This document shows positions 8,839-32,761 of a DNA stretch of 64,000 nt, piece after piece (position 1 is the stretch's first letter; every line of letters begins with the position of its first letter). The stretch covers positions 8,918 through 72,917 of the IMG/VR virus record IMGVR_UViG_3300050821_003843. One strand, written 5' to 3'. The stretch is from a virus. The position numbers were made by a program, and so were the translations under genes. The notes under the pieces were generated by a model. That model was not told where the DNA came from. It saw nothing but the letters and a program-made list of their open reading frames with translations, and searched no databases.

Positions 8839-9111
8839 ATGAAAAAAGCCAATAAGTATGGAGAAAAGGTAGAGCGTGTACGGATCATCAAACGGGTTGT
8901 GATTGCGTATCCATTCACCAAGTGGTTCAGTAAGCCCCAGATGGTGCTAAAGAAAGGACAACACTTTGGAATTGACGCGAAGCGATTTGCGCAACAGTTG
9001 AGAAATGAGGCGGGTGAACGTGGGGTAAAAATCGCGTTAAAAGTGTATGGAAAGTATATTGCTCTAACGGTATGGGATCGAGTTACAGGTTACTCACAGG
9101 GGAACAAATGA
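8839..9111 (+). CDS. Small basic putative DNA-binding protein
   Basis: YPF.KW motif; packed ORF. Confidence 0.45.
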   Translation: MKKANKYGEKVERVRIIKRVVIAYPFTKWFSKPQMVLKKGQHFGIDAKRFAQQLRNEAGERGVKIALKVYGKYIALTVWDRVTGYSQGNK

Positions 9112-26171: not shown

Positions 26172-26588
26172 TTATTGCTTGACCCACACATTTCCCCGCT
26201 TACCTTCGGTTGATCCGTAAGCAACTCGACCGTCTTCCACCATCAATTTCAAATGATTGACGACAGGACCACCCTCTTTTCCACCGGGTGTACGACCTAG
26301 TCCGACAACGATTTCACGTGAGGAGTAATCGTGACCCTTCTTCATGAACTTGAGGATTTGATTTTGGAGTTCGGTTGTGTCGGTTCGTGTTGCTCGTGGG
26401 GCTGATTCCTTTTTCACTAATTTCGCAGCAGCCTTTTTCGTAGCCACTTTTTTCACGGGGGCAGTTGACTTGGCGGCAACCTTTTTCACTGCCTCCTTTT
26501 TAACAGGGGCAGGTGATGCAGCAGCATTCACGGGAGCACCGGTGACCACGCCATCAATCACAGCGTTTCCAACAACTTTCTTAGCCAT
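26172..26588 (-). CDS. Histone-H1-like Lys/Ala-rich region plus winged-helix DNA-binding domain
   Basis: PVKK/AAK repeats; IL..M......SSREI...L ... HL..MV..G.V. Confidence 0.6.
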   Translation of the reverse strand: MAKKVVGNAVIDGVVTGAPVNAAASPAPVKKEAVKKVAAKSTAPVKKVATKKAAAKLVKKESAPRATRTDTTELQNQILKFMKKGHDYSSREIVVGLGRTPGGKEGGPVVNHLKLMVEDGRVAYGSTEGKRGNVWVKQ

Positions 26589-26952: not shown

Positions 26953-27022
26953 GGAAATTCTGTGAACTTTTCTACGGAATTTTCAAAATAGTTCTGAAAT
27001 CCCTATTTTAGAGGAGTTTTCT

Positions 27023-27640
27023 ATGAGAGAAATTGTTCGGATTCTCGTTGACATGGACGGTCTGTTGACGAATTTTGATGACGCGGCGTGCCTCGCACAT
27101 GGCTTTCCGATCCAAATGTTACACGATTACAGGCAGCCGGGTGAATGGTCGCTCATCCCTATTTTCGCTCGAATGCGGGGCGAAATCATGAGTGTGGAGG
27201 AATTTTGGAGGGTGATTGGCGAACATGGTGAACTATTTTGGACCTCGTTGGCGCAAACCGAATGGATGGACCCATTGCTCCAATTGGTTAAAGAATTCAA
27301 CGGTAGTGATTGGCATGTGGTAACAGCCCCAAGCCATTGCCCCACGTCGTATAGTGGAAAGGTGAAGTGGTTGAAGTCACGACTTGGCAAGGAATTTGAT
27401 CGGGTACTGGCAACCCCGCACAAGGAAATTTTAGCCATGCCGGGTGTTATACTGATTGATGACAACGAACAAAACATACAACGGTTTAAACTGGCCGGTG
27501 GTAGTGGGATCTTGTTCCCAATAATGGGGAACTGTCTACATCACTTGGCAAATAATCCAGTGGCTTACGTGCGTGAACAGATAGAAGAAAGGCTGTATAA
27601 GGATGAATCTGAAAGTAGGGCAGATAGTCACGTGGCTTGA
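27023..27640 (+). CDS. 5'(3')-deoxyribonucleotidase (HAD, NT5C-like)
   Basis: VDMDGLL.NF, VTAP, GK..WL, K..LA, LIDD...N...F. Confidence 0.85.
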   Translation: MREIVRILVDMDGLLTNFDDAACLAHGFPIQMLHDYRQPGEWSLIPIFARMRGEIMSVEEFWRVIGEHGELFWTSLAQTEWMDPLLQLVKEFNGSDWHVVTAPSHCPTSYSGKVKWLKSRLGKEFDRVLATPHKEILAMPGVILIDDNEQNIQRFKLAGGSGILFPIMGNCLHHLANNPVAYVREQIEERLYKDESESRADSHVA

Positions 27641-27818
27641 ACCAATTCGCACACAGATTGAAAACCGTGGGAATATGTTGGGACCACGGATGATAGATCA
27701 GGAATTACACCACAGTGGTGAAGTGATTTCGATTGAGGGTGATTCGTGTACGGTACGCGATTCATGGGGTTTGATTTGGCAACTGAAAATTGAAAAGGAC
27801 AAGTTGACATGCATCTAA
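27603..27818 (+). CDS. Small SH3-like hypothetical protein
   Basis: LKVGQIV..GEVISI pattern. Confidence 0.45.
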   Translation: MNLKVGQIVTWLEPIRTQIENRGNMLGPRMIDQELHHSGEVISIEGDSCTVRDSWGLIWQLKIEKDKLTCI

Positions 27819-28945
27819 AGTATCCAAACGTAAATGACGCATTCCACGAATTGGTCTACGGAATTCATAATGGACACATTCCAACCGTGTCATCACCTAG
27901 TAGAGTTGGTGACGTGTTACAAATCCAAGAACCTGTGATTGTCACATATGAAAAGCCGCTAGAGAGGGTGCTGTTCAACCCTGCACGCGATGTTAATCCA
28001 TTCCTGAACTTGTATGAAACACTTTGGATGTTGGCTGGCCGTAATGACATTGCACCATTGGAATATTACTCTAAGAACTATGGTCAGTTCGTGGATGATG
28101 GTGATGGAATGCAGAATGCAGCATATGGATATAGGTGGAGACATGCATTACATAAAGAAATGGGAGATCCATGTAGTAAGTGTGGTGAGAGCGTTCCTTG
28201 TCACTGCGACGCACCATATTGTGTAGATCAACTCAAAGTTATTATCGACCATTTACGAAAGATACCAACGTCAAGACGTGTCGTGCTCCAAATGTGGAAC
28301 GTAGAAGATGACTTACTCAAGATTGAAACAACAAAAGATGTTGCGTGCAATCTATGTGCGTTGTTCTCGTTGAGACAAGCTAGTCGAAAAGAAATAGAAG
28401 AAGAGGCACATAACGGCTACTATCTCGATATGACGGTCTACAATCGCTCGAATGACTTGACTCTTGGACTTTTGGGGGCGAACGTTGTTCACTTCTCATT
28501 TCTACAAGAATACATGGCGAATTGCTTAGGCGTTCAGGTGGGGGTGTATAATCAAGTGAGTAACAATCTCCATTGTTACACATCACGTTGGGAACCAGAT
28601 AAGTGGTTAGCAGAAGGTGTGTGTGATGAGTACAGAAACCAACAGTGGAATCATGTACCGTTAGTTAAGGACCAACAGACGTTTGATAGTGAGTGTCGTA
28701 ATTTTGTGGCTATGAACTTTTGCGGTGGTGTAATCCACGATAACCGTTGGGAAGAACCATTTTTGCGAACCGTGGCGCAACCGATGATGAATGCCTTCCA
28801 TTATCACAAACATCGCAAATACTGGGAAGCGTTGAATCACGGTGTTGCGAACATTGCTGACGGCGCTTGGCAATTGTGCGCATACAGATGGATTGAGAAA
28901 CGACGACTGGCTTGGGAAGCGAAAAAGGAGACGAATGATGAGTAG
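27809..28945 (+). CDS. Thymidylate synthase family dUMP hydroxymethylase
   Basis: NPF....E..W.LAG.ND, AYG.RW, DQL, SRR.V..MW, catalytic ACN, RSND...G..N, S.NLH.Y; near the hmdU kinase and transferase genes. Confidence 0.85.
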   Translation: MHLKYPNVNDAFHELVYGIHNGHIPTVSSPSRVGDVLQIQEPVIVTYEKPLERVLFNPARDVNPFLNLYETLWMLAGRNDIAPLEYYSKNYGQFVDDGDGMQNAAYGYRWRHALHKEMGDPCSKCGESVPCHCDAPYCVDQLKVIIDHLRKIPTSRRVVLQMWNVEDDLLKIETTKDVACNLCALFSLRQASRKEIEEEAHNGYYLDMTVYNRSNDLTLGLLGANVVHFSFLQEYMANCLGVQVGVYNQVSNNLHCYTSRWEPDKWLAEGVCDEYRNQQWNHVPLVKDQQTFDSECRNFVAMNFCGGVIHDNRWEEPFLRTVAQPMMNAFHYHKHRKYWEALNHGVANIADGAWQLCAYRWIEKRRLAWEAKKETNDE

Positions 28946-29180
28946 AGAAGTGTTACGCATGGCAACGATGGTGGCGAATCAACGATTGAACTGTATCAAA
29001 CGAGTCAAGGAGTTAAACAATCAACTCGGGTTGTTGCCATCAATGAAGCCAGAAGAGGTTGACAAGTCATTGAGGGAACTTGGATTACAGATCCTGAACC
29101 TCGATAATCTCCAGTCAGAATACCAGTCAATGAAACTACAAGCGGAGAACAGTGGTGATCTACCAGCCAATACGCACTAA
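28935..29180 (+). CDS. Hypothetical coiled-coil protein
   Basis: AAGGAG RBS. Confidence 0.5.
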   Translation: MMSREVLRMATMVANQRLNCIKRVKELNNQLGLLPSMKPEEVDKSLRELGLQILNLDNLQSEYQSMKLQAENSGDLPANTH

Positions 29181-29719
29181 GACAGATTTTGTACGGAGGT
29201 ATTCCTAGCGGAGAATTTGGCAATAGGTCTCCCACATGGAACGGCTGGCTTGATTGGAATAAAGATCATCTAGGTTCTGATAAGTTTGAATTGTTTCACA
29301 TTCGAAATCGTGTTGCAGGTGCAATGACTTGGTATGACGTGCCCAAATTCAAAATGGCTGATACGTGGGATATCGCTTGTCAACACTTTAGCGTGGAACA
29401 GTTGTACATATCTGCTATGTGCCCTACTGAGTTGACACAAATCCAAGGTGAGGTAATGAGAACAGCCAAAGGACTGTATCTCTATTACTCAACCGTAAAG
29501 AAGCCGATGCGTCAATCATTGTTGGAAGGGGGTCAAGAAGCACTAGGACTATTTGCAGTTTCTTTACTACAATACTACATGGATCAAAACAGTTGGGAAT
29601 GGTTGAATCACTTACTCGATAGTTATGAAGATCATGTCGTAGAGTTTACAACGCTCTCCAAACGGTGGGGCGCAGTCGAAGGATATAACACACTATTTTG
29701 GGAGGTTAGAAAGTTCTAA
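29152..29719 (+). CDS. Hypothetical protein, probably assembled by a +1 frameshift at 29203-29209
   Basis: GGAG-RBS/GTG ORF (..KTDFVRRYS-stop) joins the +1 frame (SGEFGNRSPTW..WEVR). Confidence 0.55.
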
Positions 29720-30441
29720 TGGATATTAAACAGTACGAAGAAGCCAGCATGCGCACGATGGCAGACCAGAATGTGATTCGTCTACGTAATTTTGAAGGCG
29801 TAGATAAAAAAGGTAATCCACAATTTGGCGGAAAAAATAGTAGTACAGTTCTGACACAACTCGACAACGCTGCTAGAGGCATGGCTGGTGATGTGGGTGA
29901 GGTCAATACGTGTGTACAACAAGCATTGGAGTATGGTAAACTACTAGACTTGGTGAATTTGAAGGAAGAACTAGGTGATGTGTTATGGCGAATCGTACAA
30001 GCATGTAACGCCGTGGGGTTCACGTTGGAGGAAGTGATGCAAGCGAACATTTCAAAGCTGGCTATAAGATACCCCGACAAGTACACGGACCACTTAGCAG
30101 ATGAGGCAAATCGAAATCGTGAAGCAGAACGACAAGCAATCACGGTTCCACAACTAGGCGAACCTTATCCAGTTGGTCATACGAATGACGGTGGAGTGAT
30201 TGTAGAACCAATGTCACCAACCAGAACAGTAATGTCTCAAACTGGACAAGGTTGGGCAGAACCAAAAGAACAACGTGATACGGGACCGGGTCGATTGGAT
30301 CAAGAACTAGAATACCCAGTTTCCAATGCATTTGTGTCTGCTGCTGATGCCCCTGTTCGTAGATGTCGAAAGTGCGGGTTGAAGATCCATCGTAATCAAC
30401 CAAGTGATATCTGTTCAAGTTGCTTCAAACCTACAACGTGA
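29719..30441 (+). CDS. MazG-like dNTP pyrophosphatase with C-terminal Zn ribbon
   Basis: GE.....KEELGD.LW, N..KL..RYP, CRKC..CSSC. Confidence 0.8.
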   Translation: MDIKQYEEASMRTMADQNVIRLRNFEGVDKKGNPQFGGKNSSTVLTQLDNAARGMAGDVGEVNTCVQQALEYGKLLDLVNLKEELGDVLWRIVQACNAVGFTLEEVMQANISKLAIRYPDKYTDHLADEANRNREAERQAITVPQLGEPYPVGHTNDGGVIVEPMSPTRTVMSQTGQGWAEPKEQRDTGPGRLDQELEYPVSNAFVSAADAPVRRCRKCGLKIHRNQPSDICSSCFKPTT

Positions 30442-30481
30442 GGATAGTTGATGACTTATCAAGTATTAGTTAGGATGAGTA

Positions 30482-32761
30482 ATGCCTAAAGCGATTGAAC
30501 GTGACACACTTCCAGCGGGGTTGAAGCCCTTTCGGTTCCACGGTCTTGATTTGAGTTATAAGGATGGTGATAAAAATGCAACGTGTCTGTGCCCATTTTG
30601 TGGTAAGGAAGGGAAGTTCACAATCCTTGCTGAGACGAGTCAATGGAGGTGTTTCAGTTGTAATGAGGGATTTGAGAAGAAGGACAACAATGGCCATGCG
30701 AAGTCGATCAAGGGTGGTAATGCTACGGAATTTCTACGTCTGTTGTGGAAATACTGTGATGCAGAACCTTGTGACTACACCGAATTGGTAAAGGATCGCA
30801 CATTACTCAGCCCAGTGATGTTGGTGCGTTGGGAGGTAGTCAAGTCATTTCTAACGGGTGAGTGGCTGATGCCCGCGTATAACATCAAGGGAGAACTGAT
30901 CCAACTCTATCGTTACGTGAATTGTAAAAACCCCAAAACAGGTGAGTGGAAACGTAAGTTGATTCCCACACCCGAAGTGGGTGGTCATGGATTATTCGGG
31001 ATGAGTGGATTCGACAGTAAGCGACCGATCATTGATGTGTTCGAATCATGGAACGGTGTGGTCTATGAGGAAGTGATTAGTCAGATTGGTATGAATGCTG
31101 AGACTGAGAAGTGGGAGGAGGTTGGTAAGTTCAAGGATTCGTTGGGGGCTGAACGAAATGTGATTGGCTTACCCGGTTGCGCTACGTTCGATTCGAAGTG
31201 GATGCCATTGTTTAAAGATCGTGTGGTCAACTTTTGGTTCGATAACGATCATCCCCAAGTGAATGAGCGAAATGGGCAATCAACAACGGGGGCGGGCTGG
31301 CTGTATTCGTGTCGTAATTCCAGCACACTTTTGAAGGTGGCGAAATCGGTACAGGTGTTAAAGTGGGGTGAGCAAGGTTTCGACCCCGAATTGACTTCGG
31401 GTTACGACGTTAGGGACGCTCTGAAGGCCCATAAATCGCTTTTGGGGCGTTCGGCGGCATTATTTGACCTAAAGGTCAAGTTACAAACCGTGGCCGCTAA
31501 CGAGGTCGTATCGAGCGCAAATTCGGCAGCGGGGGATGTGAATACCAAGCTACGACCGAAAACGTGTACCGACTTCAAAACACTGGTCAATTCGTGGAAG
31601 AAGCCGATGCGCTGGCGACAGGAGATGGAGGACGCTTTAGCGATCTGTCTAGCGGTGGGTTTGTCAACGGAACAGGTAGGGGACCAGTTGTTTCTGATGC
31701 TGATCGCTGACGCCGGGAGTGGAAAAACTTGTTTCTGTGATGCGTTACTTGTGGCGGAAAATAGTTACCCGGTTGAGAACGTGACAGGCTTGTATTCTGG
31801 CTGGCAGGGTGGTGGCTTCAGCCCATTGGAACGTATGAATCGTAAAATGTGGATTACAGCAGAGGGGGACACGGTTGTACAACATCCCGCATTTCCTCAA
31901 TTCATGTCACAAATTCGACGCGCATTCGATGGAAAGGGCCATGCCACATTCAAGAACTCGAAAGAGGATCAGTTATTCGATGGTCTTAGATTTACGTGGT
32001 TGCTGGCTGGTACACCAACAATGATTGACCTGATGAACAATCAAGCCTCATTGGGAGACCGGTTCCTCAAATTCTTTATCGGACAACCGGACGACGATGA
32101 GCGTCGACAGATACTCATGAGATCGGCTTACTCAGCAAAGCGGGCAGTACAAATCAAGTCGGGTGATGATGCAGAACATCAACTCGATCCAGCGTTGTGC
32201 GAGGCGTACCAGTTGACGGGAGGTTATCTCAATTGGCTTAGATCAAATACTGATCTACTCGCCAAAGTTGAAATGGATGATGAGCGATTGATGCAATGCG
32301 CTGACTTGGGAGAGTTCACGGCTTGCTTACGCGCTCGACCGGGTAAGACGAAAACCGATGAAGCCCACGATGCGAAGGAAATGCCCACACGTCTAACAAA
32401 ACAATTTGTACGGGTGGCGATGTGCCTTGCTGTGGTGTGCAATCGAGGGTCAGTCGATCAGCATATAATGGACCTAGTGCGAAAGTTGACACTCGATACG
32501 TCAATGGGGGTCACACTACAGATCGTGAAGCAACTCTATGCAAAAGGGAATGAGGGGTTGTCATACGGGGCACTGGCGCAACTGGTGAGTATGACGAATG
32601 ACAAAGTCAAATCCATGTTACGGTTTTTACACAAACTGAAAATCGTGGCATGGTACGAACCGATTGATGAGGAAACACAAAAGAAGTTACCTCACAAATG
32701 GCGAGTGACGAAACACATGGCGGAACTTTACAAATCTGTGATTGTTGATTGGGGACAATAA
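30482..32761 (+). CDS. Primase-helicase (Zn finger, TOPRIM-like, AAA+ P-loop)
   Basis: CPFC..CFSC, FDND, G.D.RD, ADAGSGKT, LGDRF. Confidence 0.75.
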   Translation: MPKAIERDTLPAGLKPFRFHGLDLSYKDGDKNATCLCPFCGKEGKFTILAETSQWRCFSCNEGFEKKDNNGHAKSIKGGNATEFLRLLWKYCDAEPCDYTELVKDRTLLSPVMLVRWEVVKSFLTGEWLMPAYNIKGELIQLYRYVNCKNPKTGEWKRKLIPTPEVGGHGLFGMSGFDSKRPIIDVFESWNGVVYEEVISQIGMNAETEKWEEVGKFKDSLGAERNVIGLPGCATFDSKWMPLFKDRVVNFWFDNDHPQVNERNGQSTTGAGWLYSCRNSSTLLKVAKSVQVLKWGEQGFDPELTSGYDVRDALKAHKSLLGRSAALFDLKVKLQTVAANEVVSSANSAAGDVNTKLRPKTCTDFKTLVNSWKKPMRWRQEMEDALAICLAVGLSTEQVGDQLFLMLIADAGSGKTCFCDALLVAENSYPVENVTGLYSGWQGGGFSPLERMNRKMWITAEGDTVVQHPAFPQFMSQIRRAFDGKGHATFKNSKEDQLFDGLRFTWLLAGTPTMIDLMNNQASLGDRFLKFFIGQPDDDERRQILMRSAYSAKRAVQIKSGDDAEHQLDPALCEAYQLTGGYLNWLRSNTDLLAKVEMDDERLMQCADLGEFTACLRARPGKTKTDEAHDAKEMPTRLTKQFVRVAMCLAVVCNRGSVDQHIMDLVRKLTLDTSMGVTLQIVKQLYAKGNEGLSYGALAQLVSMTNDKVKSMLRFLHKLKIVAWYEPIDEETQKKLPHKWRVTKHMAELYKSVIVDWGQ

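Follow-up and report, generated by a model that had tools for sequence, protein, structure and literature searches.

The frameshift signal of the release factor gene prfB is built from a Shine-Dalgarno (SD)-like element lying 6 nucleotides (nt) upstream of the stop codon and a CTT codon, part of a CTTT slippery run, that follows this element at a distance of 3 nt. A C after the stop weakens termination, and species in which prfB is in frame have lost both the SD-like and the slippery elements (PMC12421855). A UCC codon directly followed by a stop is a common +1 shift site in antizyme genes, where re-pairing is believed to play little part in the shift (PMC5009743, PMC10885494), and the Listeria phages PSA, A118 and A500 use +1 frameshifts at CCC_UGA in capsid and tail genes (PMC5009743). 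Frameshifting at a low level can also offset so-called 'savior' or corrective indels, as described for herpesvirus thymidine kinase (PMC5009743) and for a +1 mutant of E. coli rpoB (PMC7022156). Here we describe a gene of a 72.9-kb phage genome, the IMG/VR virus record IMGVR_UViG_3300050821_003843 (72,917 bases, with direct terminal repeats, rated 100% complete), that is interrupted at a TAG codon within an arrangement resembling the prfB signal. The stretch analysed, referred to as the window, comprises the 64,000 nt from base 8918 to base 72917 of this record.

The layout of the interrupted gene and of its neighbours is given in Table 1. Translated from GTG 29152, with a second GTG at 29155, the zero frame reads VVIYQPIRTKTDFVRRYS and meets the TAG (29206-29208) as its codon 19. 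An SD-like 4-mer lies upstream of both GTG codons, and the spacing of 7 nt favours GTG 29155 over GTG 29152 as the start. In this phage, initiation is led by such elements, since SD-like 4-mers precede 27 of 137 starts of long open reading frames (ORFs) versus 71 of 1248 internal start-like codons. The end of the short zero-frame ORF (ORF1; bases 29194-29209) reads CGG AGG TAT TCC TAG C. In the +1 frame no stop occurs from 29159 up to the TAA at 29717-29719, and the part that begins with AGC 29207 has 170 codons (ORF2). The TTG at 29189 has no SD-like 4-mer at positions -16 to -4 and lies 8 nt past the stop of orf81, a small ORF upstream. When TCCT is read as a single four-base step, a protein of 188 residues results, in which the Tyr, two further residues and GEFGN stand at the spacing that is normal for the protein family. 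Judged from its alignment with this family, the pair of ORFs is one gene split by one extra base, and not two genes. Most of this had been claimed in an earlier note on the same DNA, which described a short ORF with a ribosome-binding site ending in the 16 nt above, about 170 codons of open +1 frame homologous, as it turns out, to the body of the family, a TTG lacking an SD and a location within a nucleotide-metabolism operon; the sequence bears out each of these points, the gene being flanked by a thymidylate-synthase-like gene on one side and a MazG gene on the other.

Table 1. Features of the interrupted gene and its neighbours (window coordinates)
Feature	Coordinates	Strand	Remarks and basis
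Thymidylate-synthase-like gene, 378 residues	27809..28945	+	Conserved upstream neighbour; PF00303 1.3e-21; phrog_5131 2e-86
orf81, orphan 81-codon ORF	28935..29180	+	Between the thymidylate-synthase-like and interrupted genes
GGAG, ribosome-binding site of the interrupted gene	29144..29147	+	4 nt before GTG 29152, 7 nt before GTG 29155
ORF1, zero frame, 17-18 codons, ends at TAG	29152..29208	+	Conserved N-terminus of the family (QPIRTKTDFVRRYS); alignment with relatives
TTG, sole ATG/GTG/TTG of the body frame ahead of the conserved body	29189..29191	+	Start used by gene callers for the 176-residue product
Internal SD-like GGAGG (GGAGGT to 29200)	29195..29199	+	Ends 6 nt ahead of the stop
TAT (Tyr), 3-nt spacer	29200..29202	+	E-site codon while the A site holds the stop; Tyr fixed by the RRY of the family
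TCC (Ser), proposed P-site shift codon	29203..29205	+	TCCT as one step gives the family spacing
Zero-frame TAG, then C	29206..29209	+	T 29206 is the base that would be skipped
ORF2, +1 frame, 170 codons (SGEFGN...WEVRKF) and TAA	29207..29719	+	Body of the protein (predicted ATP-grasp-like fold); homology
MazG-like pyrophosphatase gene	29719..30441	+	Start overlaps the stop of the interrupted gene; matched in 66 related loci

The reading that we favour, with a probability of roughly 55%, is that the cassette is a 'shifty stop' at which an SD-stimulated forward frameshift, either programmed or corrective, would still yield the full-length protein. The evidence that carries it comes from the protein family and from a comparison of the junction among relatives. 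The 176-residue product of the +1 frame has no match in Pfam or PHROG. A first search returned 110 homologs (E<=0.001), and a full profile search at the same threshold returned 1,542 cluster representatives, 580 of them at E<=1e-30, the family amounting to more than 1,500 clusters at 50% identity. Most homologs have 182-200 residues and are thus 10-20 residues longer than the ORF of the window, because the N-terminus of the family sits in the short zero-frame ORF. Family proteins, some 185-195 residues long, open with a short leader, followed in one frame by PVLTKxDFVRRYxxGEFGN, and in an alignment of 104 rows (A2) K13 is invariant while P9, V10, F16 and R19 are at least 90% conserved.

To describe the fold we rely on a model of an in-frame homolog (P0014), obtained with AlphaFold2 from 104 aligned sequences, which has a mean predicted local distance difference test (pLDDT) score of 94.9 and places the conserved N-terminal segment in a helix (residues 13-21, pLDDT ~91). 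All 40 of the matches listed when this model was compared with the PDB by Foldseek are ATP-grasp enzymes or tubulin-tyrosine-ligase-like proteins, among them RimK, LysX/ArgX, D-Ala-D-Ala ligase and succinyl-CoA synthetase beta (best E 9.4e-4, TMq 0.36-0.52). A structure search independent of Foldseek gave 50 listed matches, nearly all of them ATP-grasp enzymes, with Z scores up to 7.7, which is a middling level. Based on this model, the fold of the encoded protein is predicted to be ATP-grasp-like. At the level of sequence, a Pfam search with 104 family members (E<=1) gave scattered noise only, a search of PDB sequences gave nothing below E 0.089, and Pfam, PHROGs, PDB sequences and the ESM Atlas together offered no named family for the protein. 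A literature search of limited extent found no description of the family or of the cassette.

The junction was compared in 118 related loci, of which 38 are on viral contigs and 80 on metagenome contigs (the best 80 of 104). Both motifs of the junction are paired in 117 of these loci, the exception (L044) being truncated by the end of its contig, and the loci represent 92 unique junction contexts. In 91 of them the gene is in frame, with the motifs 33 nt apart in 89 and 36 nt apart in 2, and in a single one, L028, it is out of frame, at 35 nt. L028 is a 70,545-base IMG/VR contig that also appears in our set as L118 and L123. A GGAGG that ends 6 nt before the stop position is found in both broken genes (the window and L028; 2/2) and in 0/91 in-frame contexts (hypergeometric p ~2e-4 for exactly those two of 93 carrying it); nine of the 91 have a weaker 5-nt stretch, for example GAGGT or AGGAG, and 77 have none. 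Similarly, a TCY codon follows the Tyr in both broken genes and in only one of the 91 in-frame contexts (L098). Whether homologs are contiguous or keep the SD-TAT-NCC-stop arrangement, which the earlier note had raised as a check, has a mixed answer. Of the 92 contexts, 91 are contiguous and without the SD-like element; one unrelated lineage has the cassette, and has it at the very codon where the window does, an outcome that speaks against a random lesion.

A scan of prokaryote genome contigs gave five pattern matches and no relatives, and a tblastn search with the read-through protein against 50,697 phage records gave no match. Within IMG/VR, the record of the window itself excepted, a scan for DFVRRYS-TAG returned the L028 contig and two unrelated, AT-rich chance matches, and a scan for GGAGG-TAY-NNN-TRR followed by G-E-F-G returned only the L028 contig. 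One family member of 168 residues (P0080, on a Logan contig of 50,803 bases) is annotated to begin with MSEFGN, precisely where the junction lies, which may point to a third interrupted gene or to nothing more than a late start call.

The second case, L028, reads ATG...GTC AGG AGG TAC TCT TAG C, giving MSHDPVLTKKDFVRRYS and then a stop. The break falls after the same Tyr-Ser as in the window, with AGGAGG ending 6 nt before the stop, followed by TAY, TCY, TAG and C. A step of +2 would produce the spacing normal for the family (YSAGEFGN), and a step of -1 would add one residue (YSLAGEFGN). In the body frame of L028 there is no ATG, GTG or TTG before GTG 3115, which itself lies past the invariant EFGN motif; the body can therefore be reached only by a change of frame. 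In the region 2830-2986 of L028, a decayed first copy of the N-terminus (MPDPVLTEADFVRRYYGV, then TGA TAG TAA) lies directly after the thymidylate-synthase-like gene. This leftover copy (MPDPVLTEADF...) has Glu in place of the invariant Lys, which is retained in the copy that precedes the TAG. About 100 nt of unmatched sequence with a TATAAT-like hexamer come next, and then the intact second copy of the N-terminus, to which the cassette belongs. It seems that recombination has replaced the 5' end of the L028 gene. Neither this spacer of about 100 nt nor orf81 of the window has a match in the other loci, and the two phages share no insert there.

A quick maximum-likelihood tree of 93 distinct body sequences (IQ-TREE; support by SH-aLRT, the Shimodaira-Hasegawa-like approximate likelihood ratio test, only) places the window with L039, L040 and L041, and L028 (as L118) in the other half. 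Two changes to a cassette are needed on this tree, and well-supported branches force two origins. By blastn, the cassette regions of the window and L028 have no special similarity to one another. Taken at face value, these comparisons suggest that the two are distant, non-sister phages whose cassettes arose independently. If the cassettes instead share an ancient origin, they must have been kept through saturating synonymous change, which would be a stronger argument for function.

A number of observations weigh against frameshifting at this site. The cassette is rare (2 of 93 unique genes) and not a conserved trait of the family, so that either case could be a lesion of recent date. Among the best 150 of the 1,542 cluster representatives, none begins its match at the junction, and the six that begin later do so at profile position 16 or beyond (>=16). 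The loose pattern of an SD-like element, 3 nt, a codon and a stop has 25 matches in the window when both strands are counted, most of them within ordinary genes and out of frame, and of the 56 copies of GGAGG on the + strand only 13 stand before starts. As the loose motif is not rare, it is homology, together with the difference from the in-frame relatives, that carries our argument, and not the motif alone. RNA structure gives no help either, as four folds around both cassettes had z scores of -1.5 to +0.9, none significant. The TTG at 29189, lying so close behind the stop of orf81, could yield a truncated protein by coupling. The body of L028 (AGEFGN...) lies at +2 or -1 from its short ORF, not at +1; an SD-like element at 3 nt predicts a forward shift, yet we know of no established natural example of a +2 step. 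With the anticodons that we take E. coli tRNA-Ser to have, a move from UCC to CCU retains two of three pairs, and UCC_U would presumably re-pair more poorly in the +1 frame than CUU_U of prfB. Finally, a 2016 review treats a UAG counterpart of the prfB arrangement, dependent on release factor 1 (RF1), as unknown (PMC5009743).

The strongest alternative to frameshifting is an ordinary frame-breaking indel, by which the gene would be dead or reduced to a truncated 176-residue product, initiated at TTG 29189 through coupling to orf81. The likeness to prfB would then be coincidence and L028 an unrelated lesion. We consider this rather unlikely. That 91 of 92 unique contexts are in frame without a cassette speaks for it, simple one-base events could have produced both breaks, and L028, with its duplicated N-terminal segment, needs a different shift (+2 or -1). 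It is also served by the frequency of GGAGG inside genes, by the 25 chance matches and by the very presence of TTG 29189, which gene callers use. It would, on the other hand, require two independent lesions at the same codon of a gene of ~188 codons, both with an SD-like element of 6-7 nt (0/91 in-frame contexts), a TCY codon (1/91) and an immediate TAG followed by C. Neither gene shows a second lesion. There are 47 alignment columns with a conservation of at least 90%, and counted across the break the window agrees with 45 of them, its two changes being conservative (Val to Ile and Tyr to Phe), and L028 with 46. The truncated product would lose the invariant Lys and the conserved N-terminal helix, and in L028 there is no start for the body at all. 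We rejected the idea of a pseudogene in the window on the grounds of the single lesion, the retention of 45/47 conserved columns and the short terminal branch (0.19 against a median of 0.5, hence not long); it is possible that the lesion of the window gene is very recent.

An error of assembly or sequencing, with the extra T at 29206 absent from the DNA of the phage, seems to us very improbable, even though the genome is a metagenome assembly and single-base indels are the commonest assembly error. The break site is not a homopolymer, and in a crude gene map 91% of the window is coding and the long genes (954, 833, 759, 739 and 676 codons) are all intact. An identical 176-residue ORF, including residues that exist only through the extra base, is recorded in two sources on contigs of different length, namely ENA (a 73,031-base contig) and JGI (two contigs, the longest of 72,917 bases), although these possibly do not represent independent reads. 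A second phage, furthermore, has the same cassette at the same codon. It is also improbable, to a slightly lesser degree, that the full protein is made by some other non-standard route, such as a shift of -2, a short hop that carries peptidyl-tRNA past the stop, or termination with re-initiation near it. The step needed in L028 (+2) suggests that step size is not fixed, and the title of a 1987 paper by Weiss et al. lists -2, +2, +5 and +6 among the hops and shifts at 'shifty stops'. There is also the precedent of T4 gene 60, a phage gene with a bypass element on a mobile insert (10.1101/2022.08.31.505936). For a hop, inspection by eye reveals no matching tRNA-Ser landing codon past the stop in either locus. 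Re-initiation would find no start-like codon near the stop in the body frame of L028, and in the window only ATT 29201, 1 nt after GGAGG, and TTG 29189. A -2 shift is disfavoured because a duplex close upstream is reported to stimulate +1 shifts and to attenuate -1 and other backward shifts (PMC6321510), an effect that also favours +2 over -1 for L028.

Other candidate explanations were considered and set aside. Reassignment of TAG as a sense codon would leave translation in the zero frame, which by eye lacks similarity to the family and soon stops. Transcriptional slippage lacks an A/T run at the site, an intron or intein does not fit an insert of just 1-2 nt, and a suppressor or frameshift tRNA encoded by the phage finds no support, since neither the window nor the other 8.9 kb of the genome contains a tRNA gene, and 13 kb of the L028 contig contain none either. 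An Rfam search of 27000-31000 (E<=1) gave only a chance match to U6atac and no frameshift element.

What the sequences establish is where the gene is split, how the cassette is laid out, that it recurs and that it goes together with the SD-like element; that ribosomes shift at this site, and with what efficiency and dependence on RF1, is inferred. In the mechanism that we propose, translation would start at GTG 29155 (or 29152), read the conserved N-terminal helix and arrive at UAU-UCC-UAG-C, where GGAGG would pair with the tail of the 16S rRNA 3 nt behind the P-site codon. With UAG awaiting RF1 in a weak context (C being next), a fraction of ribosomes would slide the peptidyl-tRNA(Ser) forward by one base and read AGC next, giving the full-length enzyme of 188 residues with family-normal spacing, and the remaining ribosomes would terminate and release an 18-residue peptide. 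The cassette would in this way act as a translational attenuator, its level set by termination versus shifting, and it could be either selected ('programmed') or an indel that survives through suppression by its context ('corrective'). Under this mechanism the phage would probably still produce the complete protein, in smaller amounts. With the E. coli anticodons that we assumed above, a tRNA that moves by two bases, from UCU to UUA, might form all three pairs, one of them G.U, so that the frame each phage needs may be the better landing for its own codon. The conserved Arg-Arg-Tyr, with two free residues behind it, is the only stretch of this protein able to encode GGAGG-UAY right before positions tolerant of Ser, and this would account for the choice of codon.

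The layout agrees with another description of +1 sites. FSscan, a +1 frameshift model for E. coli, scores a layout of 16 nt, made up of 6 nt against the anti-SD, the E-, P- and A-site codons and one base; its top candidates mostly have TAT in the E site, and a pepP cassette with TCC in the P site gave frameshifting in vivo above a random control (PMC2790909). The cassette of the window fits this model, having an SD-like 6-mer, TAT as the E-site codon, TCC as the P-site codon and an A site that would be slow. For annotation, the consequence is that gene callers report a truncated 176-residue protein from a TTG without a ribosome-binding site, the true product probably being the 188-residue fusion.

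The genes around the interrupted gene provide some context for its possible role. A thymidylate-synthase homolog lies upstream in 109 related loci, mostly within a few tens of bases. In the window, the match of this protein to PF00303 covers only residues 68-262 and that to phrog_5131 its full length. Viral homologs of thymidylate synthase make hydroxymethyl- or hydroxy-pyrimidine nucleotides for DNA hypermodification (PMC13326640), and the homolog of the window may be a pyrimidine hydroxymethylase or hydroxylase and not a methylating enzyme. That the interrupted gene encodes an ATP-dependent kinase or ligase in a pathway of the hypermodification type is a reasonable guess and should be taken as such. 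The family as a whole would be an uncharacterised and widespread component of phage nucleotide or DNA-modification pathways.

Between the two genes, orf81 overlaps the stop of the thymidylate-synthase-like gene with its ATG and the start of ORF1 with its 3' end; it has no match in Pfam or PHROG, and tblastn found none in the 118 related loci. Inserts of 150-1300 nt are common at this position in relatives. Downstream, the MazG-like protein of the window (240 residues) has a C-terminal extension of ~100 residues with a Cys-rich end (CRKCG...CSSCF) that has the look of a zinc ribbon, its homolog in L028 having 142 residues. The primase-like protein that follows (759 residues; 30482-32761, + strand) has a C-terminal P-loop region, and the homolog in L028 (4001-4870) has 289 residues and is followed by unrelated small genes. 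Upstream of the operon, on the opposite strand, both phages encode a Lys/Ala-rich protein (window 26172-26588, - strand; L028 1221-1607, - strand) whose N-terminal half is filled with AKK/TKK repeats, reminiscent of histone H1-like DNA-binding proteins. No promoter or terminator was found on the + strand at 27500-30600, from the thymidylate-synthase-like to the primase-like gene, which fits a single operon.

A more far-reaching proposal can be put forward only tentatively, and we would not bet on it: two unrelated phages may have independently built SD-driven forward-shift cassettes on UCY-UAG-C, with steps of +1 and +2, as the first natural UAG- and RF1-dependent counterpart of the prfB signal outside release-factor genes, which would tune an enzyme of DNA-precursor supply or DNA modification to the termination capacity that the host has during infection. 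A phage enzyme gene in need of an SD-stimulated shift would by itself mean that a prfB-type signal can arise anew in an unrelated gene, and it would provide a natural test of which parts are sufficient, with Ser in place of a Leu codon, UAG in place of UGA and perhaps a step of two bases. In the literature that we examined, SD-stimulated +1 frameshifting is essentially a phenomenon of one gene, prfB.

Set beside the systems with which we began, the locus shares some features with each. As in the Listeria phages, a phage gene appears to use a 'shifty stop' for a +1 shift; PSA, A118 and A500, however, add a C-terminally extended structural product to that of an intact gene, whereas the shift in the window would make the sole functional enzyme product, and the window has a Ser codon and an SD-like stimulator. 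The earlier note was right to name UCC-stop as an antizyme +1 site, as the literature confirms (PMC5009743, PMC10885494), and the window likewise has UCC in the P site directly ahead of the stop. The antizyme shift, though, belongs to eukaryotic ribosomes, to UGA, to polyamine sensing and to stimulators in the form of a 3' pseudoknot or a 5' element, in contrast to a phage gene with UAG, an SD-like stimulator and no significant structure. With corrective indels the locus has in common that an indel in a needed gene would be compensated at translation, the unshifted product being useless; those cases are single laboratory or clinical mutants, often in homopolymer runs, whereas here the layout recurs in two phage lineages at a site that is not a homopolymer. 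As far as the sequences go, the data fit both a tolerated recent lesion of this corrective kind and a selected regulatory device.

The comparison with prfB itself is the closest. The parallel that the earlier note drew with the signal of release factor 2 stands for the geometry of the SD-like element and for the C after the stop; it fails for the slippery CUU_U codon and for autoregulation. The RF1-sensitive recoding switch that the note inferred goes beyond what the sequences support. The stop of the window is UAG, read by RF1 only, instead of UGA, and its P-site codon is UCC (Ser) instead of CUU (Leu), so that the CUU_U run is missing. Its product is not a release factor and provides no autoregulatory loop, and the cassette is found in 2 of 93 family genes, one of which needs +2 or -1, whereas prfB carries its cassette in most bacteria. 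The two have the following in common: an early, short zero-frame ORF ends at a stop, an SD-like element lies 6 nt before this stop and 3 nt from the shift codon, a run of four pyrimidines spans codon and stop (TCCT in the window, CTTT in prfB), a C follows the stop in both the window and L028, and the in-frame homologs are without the SD-like element (0/91 here), just as in species with an in-frame prfB.

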